From the IMG/VR virus record IMGVR_UViG_3300025759_000058: a stretch of DNA of 64,000 bases. The stretch is one strand, 5' to 3'. The translations under genes were made by a program, and so were the position numbers. This document shows positions 18,222 through 27,466 of the stretch, piece by piece. The notes under the pieces are model-generated. The model did not search any database. It saw nothing but the letters and a program-made list of their open reading frames with translations, and was not told the origin of the DNA. Position 1 is the stretch's first letter; each line of letters starts with the position of its first letter. This DNA comes from a virus.

Positions 18222-18827
18222 ATGTCTAAAACATTATTAGTCGATTATACATTATTTGAAGTATCACCTCAGCAAATAAATGAGTCAATGACTCAAAACA
18301 ATGGCCGTTTAATTGTATCTGGCGTATTGCAACGGGCTGAGGCTAAGAATCAGAATGGACGTATTTATCCTAGAGAAACATTAGTACGTGAAGCAAAAAA
18401 ATATTCTGACTCATTTATTGCAGAAAAGCGTGCATTAGGAGAATTAGATCATCCCGATTCATCCGTTGTTAATCTTAATAATGTTTCTCATAATGTTTTA
18501 GAAATGGCGTGGGCAGGAAATGACCTTGTAGGAAAGGTTGAGGTATTATCGACGCCTTCAGGAAATATTCTTAAAGAGTTATTTAAGTCTGGTATTCGTT
18601 TAGGCATTTCATCTCGCGGTATGGGGTCTGTTAAAGAAGTAATGAAAGAGGGCGAAAATACATTAGAAGTGCAACCTGACTTTGAATTAATTGCTTTTGA
18701 TTTTGTATCAAATCCATCTACTCATGGCGCATTTTTGTCGCCGGTTAATGAATCAGTAAATAAAGTTACGAACAATATGTATGGAACAGTTGATCGTATA
18801 ATTACTGATATCATTAGAGAGTTTTGA
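18222..18827 (+). CDS. Prohead protease (T4 gp21-like)
   Basis: NQNGRIYP, ALGELDHP, VSH, GISSRGMGS, DFVSNPST motifs. Confidence 0.95.
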   Translation: MSKTLLVDYTLFEVSPQQINESMTQNNGRLIVSGVLQRAEAKNQNGRIYPRETLVREAKKYSDSFIAEKRALGELDHPDSSVVNLNNVSHNVLEMAWAGNDLVGKVEVLSTPSGNILKELFKSGIRLGISSRGMGSVKEVMKEGENTLEVQPDFELIAFDFVSNPSTHGAFLSPVNESVNKVTNNMYGTVDRIITDIIREF

Positions 18828-19093
18828 TGAAATTACCAATATCGTTTGATCAATTTACAAAAAATCCTGTCTCGGCAATTGCATTTGTTGCTTTAGGCGT
18901 TATAGGGTATTTGTATGTCGATATGATTAAAGTACATGAAGCACAGTTAACTAACTTAGACCGAACATGTACACAGCGCATTAATGACCATAAAGAGCGA
19001 ATTGAGTCATTAGAAGAAACAGTAGTCCGTTATGAGGATAAGTTAGACCAAATAAATGATAAGTTACTCAAATGTTTAGGACAAGACAATTAA
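18824..19093 (+). CDS. Single-TM coiled-coil membrane protein (i-spanin/holin-like)
   Basis: N-terminal TM AIAFVALGVIGYLY followed by coiled coil; overlaps the lipoprotein gene. Confidence 0.5.
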   Translation: MMKLPISFDQFTKNPVSAIAFVALGVIGYLYVDMIKVHEAQLTNLDRTCTQRINDHKERIESLEETVVRYEDKLDQINDKLLKCLGQDN

Positions 19094-19629
19094 TAATAGC
19101 TAGTGCACTTATATTAATAGGATGTAGTGAGCAACTCGAATCGCCTCAATATTTCAGCACGGAGCCAGAGATAGTTGATTCGATCCAAACTAAAAACCAA
19201 TGGGAAGGATTGTCTAGTATAGATGCTACATTAGCTATGGCAGACGAGGTAATGGCTAAACAGATGGAAGAAGAACGCCGTACACAAAATACTATAATTA
19301 GATTACGTACTACTGTGACTAGCGAAGAGGCTATAATAGATTCATTGCGGTCTTCAATAAGTTTTCGTGATAGTTTAATAAATCAATTAGGTTCTATACA
19401 AAAAACGCAACATGCGAGTATAGTAAATTTACGTGAAGAATTGCAACATAGGCAACATATATGTACTACAGAATGTACACCTACAATATTCCAATTAAAA
19501 AATGAAAATAAACAATTATTAAATTATATACAAGAGTTACAGAGTCAAATCGAAATAATGGATTCGTTATTATTAGATAACAGAAAAACGAGAAAAATCT
19601 ATGAACCTACTACCGGAAGATCTTTTTGA
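19072..19629 (+). CDS. Coiled-coil lipoprotein (o-spanin-like)
   Basis: Signal peptide with LILIG-C lipobox; long coiled coil; DSI/DSL sequons. Confidence 0.55.
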   Translation: MFRTRQLIIASALILIGCSEQLESPQYFSTEPEIVDSIQTKNQWEGLSSIDATLAMADEVMAKQMEEERRTQNTIIRLRTTVTSEEAIIDSLRSSISFRDSLINQLGSIQKTQHASIVNLREELQHRQHICTTECTPTIFQLKNENKQLLNYIQELQSQIEIMDSLLLDNRKTRKIYEPTTGRSF

Positions 19630-19717
19630 TTTACCAGAATTTAAAGTACTACCATGGTATAAAAGATTTTGGATTAGATTAAAGGTAGCATTTTTTACTT
19701 TTAACTCTTATATGTGA
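19601..19717 (+). CDS. 38-aa small protein not in the ORF track (MNLLPEDLFDLPEFKVLPWYKRFWIRLKVAFFTFNSYM)
   Basis: Fills the gap exactly and is TGATG-coupled to the next gene; amphipathic PWYKRFW helix. Confidence 0.55.
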   Translation: MNLLPEDLFDLPEFKVLPWYKRFWIRLKVAFFTFNSYM

Positions 19718-20133
19718 TGACTAAATCTACAACTATTATAATAGGCCTTACATCGACATTAAGTTTTTTATGTTCATATTTTTTAAACTTGACATTAGAT
19801 AATGTTGAACAGTTTTTAGGTATAGCATGTGTCGTTTTATTAGATGGCTTTTTTGGAATTATTGCTGGTACAAAAAGAGAAGGATTTAAAACTTTTAAAG
19901 CCCTTAGTGTACTTCGAACATTAGCAGTATGGTGGATTATCTTAGGAGCTATTCTAGCGGTAGAACAAGGATTTGTAGGTGCCGGATGGTTATCAGAAAC
20001 TATTATAATTCCATTTTTACTATTTCAAATTATAAGCGCTCTTAAAAATGCCTCAATGGCTGGTTTTATTAAAATGGATTTGTTAAATCAAATCTTAGAT
20101 AAAATTGACAATCATAAAGGTATTAGAAAATGA
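19717..20133 (+). CDS. Holin-like membrane protein (phage holin 4 family-like)
   Basis: Multiple TMs; LLDGFFGIIAG and QIISALKN motifs; ATG 19717 coupled to the upstream stop. Confidence 0.6.
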   Translation: MTKSTTIIIGLTSTLSFLCSYFLNLTLDNVEQFLGIACVVLLDGFFGIIAGTKREGFKTFKALSVLRTLAVWWIILGAILAVEQGFVGAGWLSETIIIPFLLFQIISALKNASMAGFIKMDLLNQILDKIDNHKGIRK

Positions 20134-20318
20134 AAAATTGGACTTCGGTTAGAGCAGTATATTTGCTCATGTCAATTGTGTTATTAATTGGCTTTAGTTT
20201 AAAAAATTGGTGGATAGTATTATTTGTAATAACAATGCTTCAAGTTGGAGTATGGACTAAGTTTTGCCCTTCTAAATGGTTATTTGAAAAAATAGGCCTG
20301 CAGAAGAGCAAACTTTAA
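20130..20318 (+). CDS. DUF2892/YgaP-TM-like small membrane protein
   Basis: 62 aa, two TMs, G..TKFCP...F.KIG motif. Confidence 0.6.
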   Translation: MKNWTSVRAVYLLMSIVLLIGFSLKNWWIVLFVITMLQVGVWTKFCPSKWLFEKIGLQKSKL

Positions 20319-21583
20319 TGTCATTAAATTTTTTAAACATATCATTACGCTCTAAAATTTGTTTAGTGTGCGCTACGCTAATAATGCTTAGCTTCTTTGT
20401 AGTTAAGACATTATTATTGATGGAAGTGTTTGATTATTCAGAATTTACAAATTGGTATGAATATTTGTCAGTTATTTTATTTATGCCACCTTTTTTTACC
20501 GTCGTTTCTGAATTTCTTTCAAAAGCTAAAAAAGAAGTAGCCGTTAAAGCTGATTTAGAATCATTATTAAATGAATCTTGTTTAGTATCTAAAGCAGATG
20601 CGCGAGGCAAAATTACATATGTAAATGATAAATTTGTTGAAATATCAAAGTATTCACGTGAAGAGTTAATAGGACAAGATCACGTTCTATTAAACTCAGG
20701 TGTACAAGATAAACAGTTTTGGGTAGATATGTACAAAACTGTCTTGCGAGATAAACAAATCTGGAATAAGTTTGTTACTAACGTCGATAAACATGGCAAA
20801 CATTATATCGTTAATTCTTGGATCATAGCTCATTTCGATGAAAAGGATAAGCTTAGAGGGTTTACATCTGTCCGGCAAGATGTAACTGAACTAGTTAATA
20901 CATTAGAAGCTATTAAACAAAAAGATGTTTATTTAGAACATGCCGCAAAGATTATTAGACATGATATGCATTCTGGTATTAATACGTATTTACCCCGGGG
21001 CATTAAATCATTAAAACGTAGATTGAATGATGAACAAATTAAAAAGTTACGTATACAAGCACCATTACAATTAATTCAAGATGGATTACATCATGCTCAA
21101 AAAGTATACGCTGGCGTGTATGAGTTTACTAATCTAGTTAAGCATAACGCCCAAATGTCTAAACAAGCATGTGATATAAAATTTATATTAGAAGACTATT
21201 TACGTTTAACGGCGTATAAGAATCAAGTAATATTAGATGATAATCTGCCTAAAGATTTGCATGTCAATGAAGCTTTGTTTTGTACGGCATTAGATAATCT
21301 AATACGAAATGGGTTAAAGTATAATGATTCTAAAACAAAGTACGTAAAAATATATTCAGAGTTTAAACAAGGTCAACAATATTTATGTATAGAAGATAAT
21401 GGCCGCGGCATGTCTCAAGAAGAGTTTGAGGTACTGTCTAAGCCATATCAGAGAAAAGAAGGCCAGAAAGAAGAAGGTACGGGTTTAGGGTTAAACATAT
21501 GTATTGAAATCTTAAAGGAGCATGGTTTTGAAATTATTTCAAATAAATTAGATGTTGGAACTAAGATAACGGTAAAAATATGA
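20318..21583 (+). CDS. Membrane-bound PAS-domain sensor histidine kinase
   Basis: Two TMs; PAS (ITYVNDKFVEISKYSREELIGQDH...RQDVT); H-box RHDMHS; N-box DNLIRNGLKY; G1 EDNGRGM; G2 GTGLGLNIC. Confidence 0.9.
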   Translation: MSLNFLNISLRSKICLVCATLIMLSFFVVKTLLLMEVFDYSEFTNWYEYLSVILFMPPFFTVVSEFLSKAKKEVAVKADLESLLNESCLVSKADARGKITYVNDKFVEISKYSREELIGQDHVLLNSGVQDKQFWVDMYKTVLRDKQIWNKFVTNVDKHGKHYIVNSWIIAHFDEKDKLRGFTSVRQDVTELVNTLEAIKQKDVYLEHAAKIIRHDMHSGINTYLPRGIKSLKRRLNDEQIKKLRIQAPLQLIQDGLHHAQKVYAGVYEFTNLVKHNAQMSKQACDIKFILEDYLRLTAYKNQVILDDNLPKDLHVNEALFCTALDNLIRNGLKYNDSKTKYVKIYSEFKQGQQYLCIEDNGRGMSQEEFEVLSKPYQRKEGQKEEGTGLGLNICIEILKEHGFEIISNKLDVGTKITVKI

Positions 21584-22017
21584 TTAATACATTAATGTTA
21601 ATAGATGATGAAAATTTATTTCATCTTGTCTTTGAGGATGCATGTTCATTGTTAGATATGGCATTGTCGATAGAAGCATTAGATAGCTCGGATGAAGCAG
21701 ATAAAAAATTCAAAGAATGGTTTCCGGACGATCCGAATCACGAACGACCCGAATGTGTGTTTGTAGACTTAAATATTATTGGTTCTTCTATGGACGGAAT
21801 CGAAACTATTAGAAAAATAAATACTGACTATGGTAATGGTTGTGTAATTGGTATTATTTCATCATCTGAAGACGAAGAAGAAATTGCCAAAGCAAAAGCA
21901 GTAGGAGCTCAATTTTGGATTATTAAGTCCGATGATATAGAACCTAGGTTAGAGTCGTTTATGGAAGATTATAATGGATATGTTAATAAAACAGCTCCAT
22001 TTAAAGTATATAGATAA
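21580..22017 (+). CDS. Single-domain response regulator (CheY-like receiver)
   Basis: LIDDE acidic pocket, VFVDLN phosphoacceptor Asp, MDG, IISSS, GAQFWIIK; no output domain. Confidence 0.9.
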   Translation: MINTLMLIDDENLFHLVFEDACSLLDMALSIEALDSSDEADKKFKEWFPDDPNHERPECVFVDLNIIGSSMDGIETIRKINTDYGNGCVIGIISSSEDEEEIAKAKAVGAQFWIIKSDDIEPRLESFMEDYNGYVNKTAPFKVYR

Positions 22018-22613
22018 TGATTGAAATAACAGAACATACTAGGAATGTTCTACTCGAGGTTGCTAAAAAGAAAAAAATCTACGTAGAAGGAAGTTTCTTA
22101 AAAATTTTAAAAGCACCAAAAGGTGATACAGAGTTCGAAGACTACCTTACATTATGTAAAGAAAAAGATGTTGCAGCTCGTAGAAAACGAATGGAAGTTG
22201 CAAAAGAAGTGCAGCAACAAAATAAAGAGCTTGAAGCAGCTGCAAAGAAGAATTCAAATTTAATGACTGAACTGCAATCGGCATTAGACGAGACAAAACG
22301 ATCTGAAGAAGAAGCGAATGAGTTACGACGTCAAGCAGAACAATTGCGAGACCAAGCAGTAAATGATTTAGATATTTTGCAAAAACGTACACAGTTTGAG
22401 TTAATAGGAACGATTGTACGTAGTGCATTATATGTTATTATTGGCGTTGGGTTATTAACAACGGCATTATATGTTTATGTAATGTCGCAAGGTTTTGATT
22501 CTAAAATCATAGAATCGACATGGTCTAATTTATTTGGTATACTTTTGACAAATTCATTTAGTATTGTAGGTACTATTATGGGAGTCAAGTATGCTACAGA
22601 TAAGGAAAAGTGA
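22017..22613 (+). CDS. Coiled-coil protein with two C-terminal TMs
   Basis: Long coiled coil, then ALYVIIGVGLLTTALYVY and LFGILLTNSFSIVGTIMGV; TAATG-coupled to the receiver gene. Confidence 0.6.
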   Translation: MIEITEHTRNVLLEVAKKKKIYVEGSFLKILKAPKGDTEFEDYLTLCKEKDVAARRKRMEVAKEVQQQNKELEAAAKKNSNLMTELQSALDETKRSEEEANELRRQAEQLRDQAVNDLDILQKRTQFELIGTIVRSALYVIIGVGLLTTALYVYVMSQGFDSKIIESTWSNLFGILLTNSFSIVGTIMGVKYATDKEK

Positions 22614-22993
22614 TGTATGAATATAATGCAATAGTTGATAGAGTCATCGACGGTGATACTATTGATTGTACGATAGATTTAGGCTTTCGTACATGGAAAA
22701 AAATACGCGTAAGGATGGAAGGAATTAATACACCGGAATCTAGAACACGTGATTTAGAAGAAAAGGCTAGAGGAAAAGCTGCCGCGGCTCGTTTAGAAGA
22801 AATACTTAATTTAAACAATAACAAGTGTGTGCTGAAGGTATCTGGTATAGGTAAATTTGGAAGGGCGTTAGCTTCTGTCTTTGTCACCTCATTATCGCCG
22901 ATTGACGGTCCTTCGTCATTGACATTAATTAACGTAAATAAACAATTGATTGAAGAGGGCCATGCTGTAGAATATCACGGTGGTAAACGATAA
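22610..22993 (+). CDS. Thermonuclease (SNase-like) family nuclease
   Basis: RVIDGDT, RVRMEGINTPE, GKFGRAL, NKQLIEEGHA motifs. Confidence 0.85.
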   Translation: MMYEYNAIVDRVIDGDTIDCTIDLGFRTWKKIRVRMEGINTPESRTRDLEEKARGKAAAARLEEILNLNNNKCVLKVSGIGKFGRALASVFVTSLSPIDGPSSLTLINVNKQLIEEGHAVEYHGGKR

Positions 22994-23024
22994 ATGCTTC
23001 ATATTTATTAAAAAGGAATTTATA

Positions 23025-24135: not shown

Positions 24136-24387
24136 ATGAATTCAAAACAGTACAAGAAGCATCAAGCTATTTTACCTGGCGCCGGCATCGGCGTCCGGTT
24201 AACTTCCGGAAAAGATCGCAAATCAAATATTGAACGTGCACTGCGAGACTGGAAAAAGCAAGTTAAAGATGCCGGCATAATAACGGCATTAAAAAATAGA
24301 ATGCAATACGAAAAGCCATCAGTGACTAGACGTATTGCTAAAAAGAAAGCTAGATATATAGCAAAAATTCAATCAGAACAAAATTAA
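24136..24387 (+). CDS. rpsU: Phage-encoded ribosomal protein bS21
   Basis: NIERALRDWKKQVKDAGII..LKNRMQYEKPSVTRR..KKKA matches the bS21 signature (E.ALRRFK...G...E.R.R..YEKPS..RR). Confidence 0.88.
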   Translation: MNSKQYKKHQAILPGAGIGVRLTSGKDRKSNIERALRDWKKQVKDAGIITALKNRMQYEKPSVTRRIAKKKARYIAKIQSEQN

Positions 24388-24400
24388 AGGAGAAATAGAT

Positions 24401-24646
24401 ATGAACCAAGCAAAAGTAATGGGCATTCTTAGACACACCTTGACATTCTTAGGTGGTGTGTTAATAACTCAAGGAGTTATCGACGAATCATTGTACACTG
24501 AATTATTCGGTGCAATTATGACATTAGTTGGTGGTGTATGGTCTGTGATCGATAAAAAGACTGTTGAAGCCGTCGAAGATGTTGTAGAAAATGTCAAAGA
24601 AAAAGTTGATGAGGTTAAAGCAAAAGTAAGTCGTAAACGTAAATAA
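24401..24646 (+). CDS. Small two-TM holin-like protein
   Basis: GILRHTLTFLGGVL..G...GAIMTLVGGVWS with a basic C-tail; strong AAGGAG SD. Confidence 0.6.
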   Translation: MNQAKVMGILRHTLTFLGGVLITQGVIDESLYTELFGAIMTLVGGVWSVIDKKTVEAVEDVVENVKEKVDEVKAKVSRKRK

Positions 24647-25753: not shown

Positions 25754-27466
25754 ATGAACGTAAGCTCATTATTACCTACCGATGCAATGGCTAACCAAAA
25801 TGCGGCTTCACTTCAATTAGAAAAGAAGTGGGAAAAGACCGGTCTTTTGGAAGGTATTGCTTCTGAGGTAGACAGAAAAGGAATGGCCGTCCTTTTAGAA
25901 AACCAGGCCAAGCAACTCGTATCAGAAGTTAACAATACTGGTACTGGTGCAAGCGATGAACAATGGGCGGGTGTTGCTCTTCCATTAGTACGTAGAATTT
26001 TTGCTGAAATTGCTGCAAAAGATTTCGTATCAGTTCAACCTATGAACCTTCCTTCCGGACTCGTATTCTACTTGGACTTCAAGTATGGTACTGCTCAAGG
26101 AACTAACGGTTTCAATGGCTCAACAGGTAATGACTTCTTAACTAGCCAAGGTAGAACATCTCAAGCCGATTCTGTATTTGGTATTACCGATGCAGGTGAC
26201 TTAGGTACATCTGCTGCTGGAGGAGCTGCTCCTTCTGAAGGTTTATATGGTGCAGGTCGATTTGGATATACAATCAATGATGCTACTGAAATTGTTGCAG
26301 TAAGCACTGGTTCATATGATCCATTTACTGCTACCTTTACTGAAGGCGGTGCTGCATTGACTGGATTGCAATTAGACAAGTTCACTAACTTTAATGCAGA
26401 GTTTTCTGCTAGTGCAGCTGCTAATACTAGAGCATACCAAGTTGTTCGTGTTACCAAGGCAGATTTAACTGCTCCAGATACTAATGGTATTAGAGCATTT
26501 AACTTGTCAGGTTCTGGTATTACTAATATCGTTCCTGAATTTACTCGTCAAGATTCAACGCACATCTACTTCTTAGCTCAAACTGCTTCAACTCCTGTTG
26601 TAACAGGTGCGGATGCAGTTGTCGTTGCTTATCACAAGCAGCCTGCAGACAATTCTAGAGGCGATTTTGAAGATACAACTGGCGGTAACTTAACTGATTC
26701 AACGATCCTCGATATTCCAGAAATCAATTTGGAAATGAGAAGTGAGGCAATTGTTGCTAAGACTCGTAAGTTGAAAGCTGTTTGGTCTCCTGAGTTTGCT
26801 CAAGACTTGAACGCTTACCACAGCATTGACGCTGAGGCTGAGTTGACTAGCATGTTGTCTGAGTACGTTTCTCAAGAAATTGACTTGGAACTTTTAGACA
26901 TGTTGATTCAGAATGCTCAAACAACTGAGCGTTGGTCTGCAAAAGTTGGATATGAGTTTGATACTACTACCAACACCTTTACTCAAGGTAATGCAACTGC
27001 TCAAGCTTACAACCAAGGTACTTGGTTCCAAACTTTAGGAACTAAGATCCAAAAGGTAAGCAATAAGATTCACCAATTGACGTTGAGAGGCGGAGCAAAC
27101 TTCTTAGTATGTTCTCCGGCTGTTGCAACTATCCTCGAATCTATTCCTGGATATGCTGCTGATACCGACGGTAATAAGACGCAATTTGCAATGGGCGTGC
27201 AGAAAGTAGGTGCTATCAACAGCAGATTCCAAGTTTACAAGAACCCATATATGACTGAAAATACAATCTTAATGGGTTACAGAGGATCACAGTTCCTCGA
27301 AACTGGTGCTGTTTATGCTCCATACATTCCGCTTATCATGACGCCATTGGTATACGATCCATCTAACTTCACTCCAAGAAAGGGTGTGATGACTCGTTAT
27401 GCCAAGAAGATGGTACGTCCTGAATTCTATGGTAAGGTCTACGTCGGTCACTTGAACGTAGTCTAA
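25754..27466 (+). CDS. Major capsid protein (T4 gp23-like)
   Basis: LLENQ, PLVRR, VQPMNLPSGLVF, KTRKLKAVWSPEFAQDL, YAPYIPL, FTPRKGVMTRYA. Confidence 0.97.
   Translation: MNVSSLLPTDAMANQNAASLQLEKKWEKTGLLEGIASEVDRKGMAVLLENQAKQLVSEVNNTGTGASDEQWAGVALPLVRRIFAEIAAKDFVSVQPMNLPSGLVFYLDFKYGTAQGTNGFNGSTGNDFLTSQGRTSQADSVFGITDAGDLGTSAAGGAAPSEGLYGAGRFGYTINDATEIVAVSTGSYDPFTATFTEGGAALTGLQLDKFTNFNAEFSASAAANTRAYQVVRVTKADLTAPDTNGIRAFNLSGSGITNIVPEFTRQDSTHIYFLAQTASTPVVTGADAVVVAYHKQPADNSRGDFEDTTGGNLTDSTILDIPEINLEMRSEAIVAKTRKLKAVWSPEFAQDLNAYHSIDAEAELTSMLSEYVSQEIDLELLDMLIQNAQTTERWSAKVGYEFDTTTNTFTQGNATAQAYNQGTWFQTLGTKIQKVSNKIHQLTLRGGANFLVCSPAVATILESIPGYAADTDGNKTQFAMGVQKVGAINSRFQVYKNPYMTENTILMGYRGSQFLETGAVYAPYIPLIMTPLVYDPSNFTPRKGVMTRYAKKMVRPEFYGKVYVGHLNVV

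Follow-up and report, generated by a model that had tools for sequence, protein, structure and literature searches.

A two-component system encoded by a virus, with a putative membrane output protein of a new, virus-only kind, lies in a lysis cassette within the 64,000-nucleotide (nt) stretch of DNA analysed here (IMG/VR record IMGVR_UViG_3300025759_000058; the whole stretch is called the window below), which comes from an uncultured, freshwater, T4-like phage. The cassette comprises nine genes, designated A to I (Table 1), among which F encodes a histidine kinase, G a stand-alone receiver and H the candidate output. We consider it reasonably likely that the three make up a phage-specific phosphorelay through which H would set or gate the membrane step of lysis. 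This reading draws on the conservation of the kinase–receiver–H trio among viral contigs, on a second form of H in which PAS domains are fused directly to its membrane half, and on the endolysin and holin genes that recur beside both forms.

A conserved module confined to viral contigs

A first-pass annotation of the window had described nine coupled genes at 18824–22993, and these are indeed all open reading frames of the + strand, each overlapping or abutting the next. The grouping of kinase, receiver and H is not peculiar to the window, in keeping with the phage-borne system supposed in that annotation: an IMG/VR scan with the window kinase returned at least 124 viral contigs on which the three recur in synteny. 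From these, 80 loci were fetched and gene presence was scored by tblastn, giving the kinase in 80, the receiver and H in 78 each, E in 66, C in 51 and the holin gene D in 44, with A detected in four loci and B only in three near-identical ones. The proposed nine-gene unit does not survive this comparison across the 80 loci, as A, B and the SNase gene I are lineage-specific; the conserved unit is C–D–E–kinase–receiver–H, and its invariant heart is the receiver–H pair. The two genes of this pair are coupled in translation: 33 of the 57 distinct trios have a gap of -4 or -1 nt between them. In seven contexts in which the receiver is only 31–47% identical to that of the window, an H-like gene follows every time (7/7), with a kinase of the same family ahead in five.

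The module appears to be restricted to viruses. A phmmer search with the receiver against 1.84 billion representative proteins gave 134 matches at E ≤ 0.001, and ordinary bacterial receivers therefore fall below the E threshold. H has 4,749 relatives in a 5.8-billion-protein collection, the best 120 of which are without a Pfam domain and come from JGI, ENA or Logan sources, bar one with an uninformative tag; in the ESM Atlas, the clusters containing H are 100% viral. A pattern scan of GTDB (one genome per species) produced six matches, all on short contigs of metagenome-assembled genomes (MAGs) labelled with several phyla, each carrying both kinase and receiver, as well as H where the contig continues. 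We read these six as phage contigs binned with bacterial genomes, and neither the 1.84-billion-protein search nor the GTDB scan recovered bacterial relatives of the receiver outside phage-like contigs. When the kinase was compared with GenBank phages by tblastn, the sole match was a qseC-like gene of Acinetobacter phage records, at 24% identity. The first-pass annotation had allowed that kinase and receiver might nest among recent host genes. Instead, every contig on which the module was found is a viral or an unassigned metagenome contig, its synteny is conserved, and these sequence comparisons indicate that it is not a recent acquisition from a host. Metagenome runs of freshwater, estuary and marine origin, belonging to many studies, contain DNA near-identical to the window, and none of the runs listed is of RNA. 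We found no description in the literature of a phage kinase–receiver module in a lysis cassette.

A fused form without kinase or receiver

A second form of H provides what we regard as the strongest computational argument of this study. On 161 viral contigs other than those carrying the trio, proteins of ~370 amino acids (aa) have two PAS domains in place of the first ~72 residues of H and keep H residues 73 to 194 at 52% identity, a stretch that includes the end of the coiled coil, the juxtamembrane block, the first transmembrane (TM) segment, the loop and the near-invariant second TM segment. The profile of the phage kinase matches these PAS domains through its own PAS part, and JGI often annotates the fused proteins as methyl-accepting chemotaxis proteins. 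Contexts were taken from 80 fusion loci (L100–L179; an example protein is P0280, L095:8001-9116), and no receiver or true kinase was detected in any of these 80. In 56 of the 80, the distance to an endolysin-family gene is no more than 1.5 kb (median 305 nt), lysis-cassette families of some kind occur in 72, and where both flanks extend for at least 3 kb, the enzyme is present in 30 of 39 loci.

Five fusion-bearing records, of which three are 91–100% complete, gave no match to the receiver profile, which did recover the receiver from both trio-bearing records used as positive controls (G001 and G002). Exactly one H gene is present in each of five trio-bearing records, and every sampled genome has a single H-type membrane module, as either trio or fusion. 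Because the receiver-free fusion keeps the membrane half of H beside endolysins, this half would be the output, with the N-terminal domain as the point of entry of the receiver signal. The protein encoded at 22017, which the first-pass annotation had singled out as the best candidate effector, gains support from a fusion that replaces both kinase and receiver in this setting. New in this study are the one-component fusion itself, the finding that trio and fusion exclude each other in the genomes sampled, and the close linkage of the fusion to endolysins.

The kinase and its sensor domain

Family scans of the window kinase identified a PAS domain at residues 93–189 (E 1.2e-8) and HATPase_c (E 1.8e-15), with PF02518 scoring 57.8 bits vs a cut-off of 26.4; hydropathy gives two TM segments, and among solved kinases HK853 is the nearest (E 9e-13). 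The H-box, which starts at residue 212, and the N (326), G1 (358) and G2 (387) boxes, initially noted as intact in the window protein, are near-invariant among 61 distinct kinase homologues. An invariant block of ~24 residues, including an R-H-D-M-H motif, occupies the position expected of a phospho-acceptor helix (DHp) domain, and the window kinase has no HisKA-type Pfam match. That the H-box insulates the kinase from host regulators, as the first-pass annotation suggested, is speculative.

The PAS domain of the window kinase matches MmoS PAS-A (3EWK; E 4e-25), Aer (8DIK; E 3e-14) and NifL (2GJ3; E 5e-4). The flavin pocket of Aer includes T18, H53, N85 and R115 (PMC9668731), which correspond to S87, H122, N155 and R186 of the kinase, so that the H, N and R of the pocket are kept and T18 is replaced by serine; Aer W70 corresponds to Y139. 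The earlier likening of this segment to flavin-binding PAS domains of the Aer/NifL type is sustained by this retention of residues of the Aer/MmoS flavin adenine dinucleotide (FAD) pocket, and a flavin redox sensor is a well-founded reading of the domain in the window phage.

For the kinase family as a whole, the same reading fails. Its commonest form, of ~300 aa, consists of two TM helices joined by a ~14-residue loop and is devoid of a sensor domain; the other forms are one of ~420 aa that includes PAS, to which the window kinase belongs, and one of ~590 aa with GAF and PAS domains. Since a PAS domain is absent from 36 of the 61 distinct kinases (present in 25), and others combine it with GAF, redox sensing, which the first-pass annotation inferred for the phage, cannot be the general input. 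Four loci (L018, L020, L021 and L089) have two kinases of this family ahead of one receiver and H, separated by a protein of ~200–245 aa (family f18). The leading kinase of L020, L021 and L089 is long (~550–590 aa), the length class with GAF and PAS. This arrangement suggests two inputs feeding one output.

The receiver and protein H

The receiver matches Response_reg (PF00072) with 35.4 bits vs a cut-off of 30.2, and its phosphorylation and switch residues, reported as intact at the outset, are invariant in 45 sequences (D9, D10, D63, S94/S95 and K116). An AlphaFold2 (AF2) model with a mean predicted local distance difference test (pLDDT) of 91.6 has the canonical receiver fold; Foldseek returned 474 receiver-fold matches, and the best structural matches include LiaR, Rcp1, RcpA, RPA3017 and CheY. 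Identity over 44 aligned relatives is 65–94%, which makes the receiver the most conserved gene of the locus (the kinase is 46–75% identical outside the three near-identical loci), and the β5–α5 output face is invariant.

H is predicted to form an N-in/C-in hairpin of two TM segments, of which the second (TM2) is polar and near-invariant. In its AF2 model (pLDDT 82), a small N-terminal domain is followed by a continuous helix from residue 38 to 158, a coiled coil running into TM1, and by a second helix (163–197). Coiled-coil length varies widely among relatives, and the N-terminal 75 residues and TM2 are conserved. Searching the PDB with this model in Foldseek gave nothing at E ≤ 0.001. Complex prediction for the receiver and H residues 1–130, both supplied as alignments, reached a score of 0.17, where the mark was 0.32, and weighs on neither side of the question of binding.

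Two other identities were considered for H. The CheZ motif is D-x3-Q, and a CheZ-like phosphatase was rejected because the conserved spacing in the coiled coil is D117-x4-Q122. A PspA/LiaH-like identity received no profile support, with only weak, generic coiled-coil matches. A long form of H, P0256, has 458 aa, including a 230-aa N-terminal extension that belongs to no family, and has no receiver or kinase nearby.

Linkage to endolysin and holin genes

The typical gene order in relatives is f5–endolysin–C–holin–E–kinase–receiver–H, where f5 is a small TM protein ahead of the enzyme, found in 34 loci of the trio search and in 57 of 80 fusion loci. Of the 78 trio loci, 43 include an endolysin-family gene, with a median distance to the trio genes of 739 nt, and 60 include some lysis-cassette family. 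Four endolysin families take this place across lineages: an enzyme with PG_binding_1 and Amidase_2 domains (f7), a GH19 enzyme (f13, which includes the "chitinase" beside the holin of Flavobacterium phage immuto), a family matching endolysin phrog_33083 (f9; E 5.5e-16) and, at a distant locus, Peptidase_M15_3, whose gene directly follows one receiver–H pair of the 31–47% identity class. In a 98%-complete genome of 186.6 kb, the sole GH19 match lies 1.5 kb from H; we estimate the probability of chance co-location within ~1.5 kb of a 150-kb genome at a few percent. The connection between the module and lysis genes that the first-pass annotation had drawn from the window is therefore seen more widely, as holin and endolysin genes adjoin the module across deep divergence. 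Among the genes downstream of the distant loci L083, L084 and L087, no lysis family was found except DUF5675.

Other neighbours recur as well. A membrane protein of ~400 aa (f11), whose EF-hand matches are weak and fall short of the cut-offs (E about 1e-4), is encoded directly downstream of H at L062:5097-6290 and in 12 other loci. Directly upstream of the distant receiver–H–endolysin set, which has no adjacent kinase, is a gene for a 2,947-aa protein (L082:1-5501).

Holin, accessory and lineage-specific genes

Gene D was first described as holin-like, a call that holds at the level of the family. Its product has four hydrophobic segments by hydropathy, and the window protein alone scores 19.1 bits with Phage_holin_4_1, below the cut-off of 22.2; all 20 members of its family (20/20) match that profile, at best with E 2.5e-8. 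The nearest cultured relative of the holin is in Flavobacterium phage immuto, to whose annotated holin the best tblastn segment is 60% identical, and in relatives the gene adjoins endolysin-family genes. On this sequence evidence, D is a holin of the Phage_holin_4_1 family, with hole formation predicted.

The product of gene E is a candidate accessory partner of the kinase membrane domain. It has two TM segments, C46-P47-S48 is invariant in its family, and a gap of -1 to +3 nt separates its gene from the kinase start in 40 of the 46 distinct loci. Its resemblance to DUF2892/YgaP-TM proteins is slight for the window protein (E value 0.055), and 15 of 25 family members match YgaP-like_TM (best E 2.3e-5), most of them below the cut-off; the sulfur/redox connection that the first-pass annotation drew from DUF2892 is speculative. 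Homologues of C, wherever present (51 of the 80 loci), always lie just upstream of the holin gene or of E.

Genes A and B plausibly encode a spanin pair. Protein A has a single, N-terminal TM segment by hydropathy (residues 17–35), and B, whose gene overlaps the end of A by 22 nt, has an LIGC lipobox; this architecture fits a two-component spanin, with no family match and with B unusually long at 185 aa. A separate small lipoprotein of ~46–56 aa (f16), with a Cys after a hydrophobic leader, shifts position inside the cassette, lying between receiver and H in L046, L054 and L072 and upstream of C in L045, L047, L050, L064 and L067, and could be an o-spanin-like component. The SNase gene I is translationally coupled to H and has tblastn matches only in L002 and L009, which belong to the three near-identical loci, and in L010; we regard it as a probable lineage-specific passenger outside the conserved module. 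Scans of the window proteins assigned no significant Pfam or PHROG family to A, B, C or H.

Genomic context and a late-promoter-like motif

Nearly all real genes of the window, a phage region, are on the + strand, and the cassette sits between the prohead protease gene and the scaffold and Gp23 capsid genes (Table 1). A second holin-family gene, of the Phage_holin_10 family, lies 1.8 kb downstream of the cassette, and a homologue of ribosomal protein S21 is encoded just upstream of it; a relative of Phage_holin_10 also occurs ~3 kb from the PAS–H fusion in L095.

A motif, TATTTAT(A/T), stands 10–35 nt 5' of many structural genes, with a copy at 23002. Its form TATTTATA is found on the + strand, usually after "ca", for example at 1809, 5437, 7790, 13538, 15475, 24106 (ahead of the S21 homologue), 27522 and 29128, and 20 of 21 matches to TATAAATA are in + orientation. 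Read in reverse complement, TATTTATA corresponds to the T4 late motif, and we take it as a candidate late promoter. A motif scan of the window found no intergenic copy of TATTTAT(A/T) between 16639 and 23002; because of this lack of a late-type motif, the cassette is probably carried on the head-gene transcript and co-transcribed with the head genes.

Table 1. Positions of the cassette genes and of neighbouring features in the window
Feature	Position	Strand	Remarks
Prohead core protease, T4-type (context gene)	18222..18827	+	Peptidase_S77 E 5.8e-27; phrog_207
Gene A	18824..19093	+	89 aa; N-terminal TM and coiled coil; i-spanin-like candidate; lineage-specific
Gene B	19072..19629	+	185-aa lipoprotein, coiled coil; o-spanin-like candidate; lineage-specific
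Gene C	19601..19717	+	38-aa conserved peptide
Gene D	19714..20133	+	Holin, Phage_holin_4_1 family (predicted)
Gene E	20130..20318	+	62-aa 2TM protein, DUF2892/YgaP-TM-like; invariant C46-P47-S48
Gene F, histidine kinase	20318..21583	+	2 TM with short loop, FAD-type PAS, putative divergent DHp, HATPase_c
Gene G, stand-alone receiver	21580..22017	+	D63 phospho-acceptor (predicted); switch residues S94, W113; K116
Gene H, effector candidate	22017..22613	+	N-terminal domain, coiled coil, 2TM; virus-only
Gene I, SNase-family endonuclease	22610..22993	+	SNase E 7e-9; phrog_452 E 1.3e-34
Late-promoter-like motif TATTTATT	23002..23009	+	Marks start of next transcription unit
Ribosomal protein S21 homologue	24136-24387	+	PF01165 E 4.9e-12, above cut-off
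Second holin-family gene, Phage_holin_10 (Pam3 gp28 family)	24401..24646	+	PF23987 E 4.3e-14, above cut-off
Gp23 major capsid protein	25754-27466		Family scan

Proposed mechanism and alternative explanations

In the phosphorelay that we favour, the kinase of the window phage would sense a cytoplasmic redox or energy signal through its Aer/MmoS-type PAS domain, binding FAD, and may also take up an intramembrane signal through its 2TM domain, possibly together with E. It would phosphorylate the receiver at D63, and the receiver would then contact the conserved N-terminal domain of H, which would relay the signal through its continuous helix into the polar TM hairpin. The hairpin would either restrain or trigger the holin, in an antiholin-like or trigger-like manner, or itself form the lesion; the regulation may delay lysis or trigger it, both being possible within this reading. 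Whether H stands for a new, virus-only class of protein, a signal-gated lysis regulator or gated holin driven by a phosphorelay or by fused PAS domains, seems to us evenly balanced.

Several findings weigh against a role in lysis. No match to the endolysin families f7, f9 or f13 was found anywhere in the 64-kb window, and among the trio loci with at least 3 kb of both flanks, only 15 of 35 have an endolysin-family gene. Part of the association between trio and endolysin could be inherited synteny rather than functional coupling. Family scans and the fold search revealed no resemblance of H to any known holin or antiholin, and the variable architecture of the kinases means that the signal is not uniform. 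The fusion in L095 lies among small genes by thymidylate synthase, with only f5 and Phage_holin_10 near. Finally, tblastn with the receiver against GenBank phages gave nothing, and no cultured phage with the module was found there.

Some of these findings would also be expected if the module served membrane signalling other than lysis, such as superinfection exclusion, the maintenance of ion gradients or proton-motive force, or a stress response of the LiaFSR/Psp type, with its linkage to lysis genes reflecting clustering and inherited synteny. The short kinases (two TM segments, a tiny loop, no sensor domain) resemble kinases that sense within the membrane together with a small membrane partner; an endolysin-family gene is missing nearby in the remaining 20 of the 35 well-flanked trio loci; and the window cassette lies inside a head-gene module. 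We nevertheless hold this explanation to be unlikely, if a serious contender, because the endolysin association outlasts the exchange both of the enzyme family and of the whole input, for which inertia is hard to invoke, and because the fusion gene keeps so short a median distance from the endolysin-family gene.

A sensor-gated holin is an improbable variant, in which H itself would be the hole-former and the relay or the fused PAS domains would open its polar TM hairpin. The two-TM, N-in/C-in topology with its polar, near-invariant TM2 would suit such a role, neither Phage_holin_4_1 nor Phage_holin_10 has a match in five trio or fusion genomes (one 84% and four 91–100% complete), and in L012, L019 and L031 H adjoins an endolysin without a recognised holin. 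Against this, in most loci other small TM proteins at the endolysin (f5, f21, or D in 44 of 80) could be the holin, and the ~130-residue cytoplasmic coiled coil of H is unlike known holins, as is its sequence, which has no homology to any holin family.

That the true target of the receiver is a host protein, in a form of takeover, with H serving only as anchor, scaffold or phosphatase, is very improbable: the receiver, as the most conserved protein of the locus with an invariant β5–α5 face, would fit an unchanging partner, but the fusion lineages without a receiver keep the membrane half of H beside endolysins, and the searches recovered no bacterial relatives of the receiver outside phage-like contigs.

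Relation to known systems

The closest functional parallel is lysis inhibition in T4 (holin T, antiholins RI and RIII), in which a sensed signal is likewise conveyed by small proteins to the membrane lysis machinery, and a T4-like phage with late expression of lysis genes is common ground. T4 differs in relying on direct protein binding and a periplasmic superinfection signal, with no kinase or phosphoryl transfer. None of the nine window proteins matched the families of T4 holin T, RI or RIII, and Phage_holin_T had no match in five related genomes, a search that was silent in control genomes too. The likeness is one of functional analogy only.

Individual components have better-known counterparts. 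The PAS domain resembles those of Aer, MmoS and NifL, the outputs of which are a chemoreceptor (Aer) and regulators of methane monooxygenase and nitrogen fixation (MmoS and NifL), whereas here the domain belongs to a phage kinase. With single-domain receivers that work through protein contact, such as CheY (which acts on FliM), Spo0F, DivK and the phytochrome partners Rcp1/RcpA, the phage receiver shares its stand-alone form, its size of ~145 aa, the canonical fold and the switch residues. It is, however, only 12–24% identical to them, has S rather than P after K116, carries a conserved C-terminal extension specific to its family and has a phage membrane protein as its proposed target. Kinases of the LiaFSR and BceRS-AB type have two TM segments, a short loop and a small 2TM gene coupled upstream in common with the ~300-aa phage form; unlike those systems, the phage module is virus-encoded, its receiver is without a DNA-binding domain and no homology to LiaF or BceAB was detected. 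Arbitrium and VqmA of phage VP882 are, as proposed here, sensors of the phage's own that are tied to a lysis decision, but they act on the transcription of lysis–lysogeny switches in temperate phages, whereas the present cassette is probably late, T4-like and without a DNA-binding output.

Implications

The timing of lysis sets phage fitness and burst size. It is known to be controlled by holin clocks, by antiholins and, in T4, by lysis inhibition upon superinfection; to our knowledge, none of these depends on phosphoryl transfer or on a metabolic sensor in the cytoplasm. If it acts as proposed, the module would be the first case of lysis under phosphorelay control in any virus. Its parts are small and separable, making heterologous expression feasible without a cultured phage, and a sensor-gated lysis switch could serve as a part for synthetic biology. 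The module is abundant in metagenomes from fresh, estuarine and marine waters; if the proposed role is correct, thousands of uncultured aquatic phages would time lysis by the redox, energy or membrane state of their hosts, and models of the viral turnover of aquatic bacteria would be affected.

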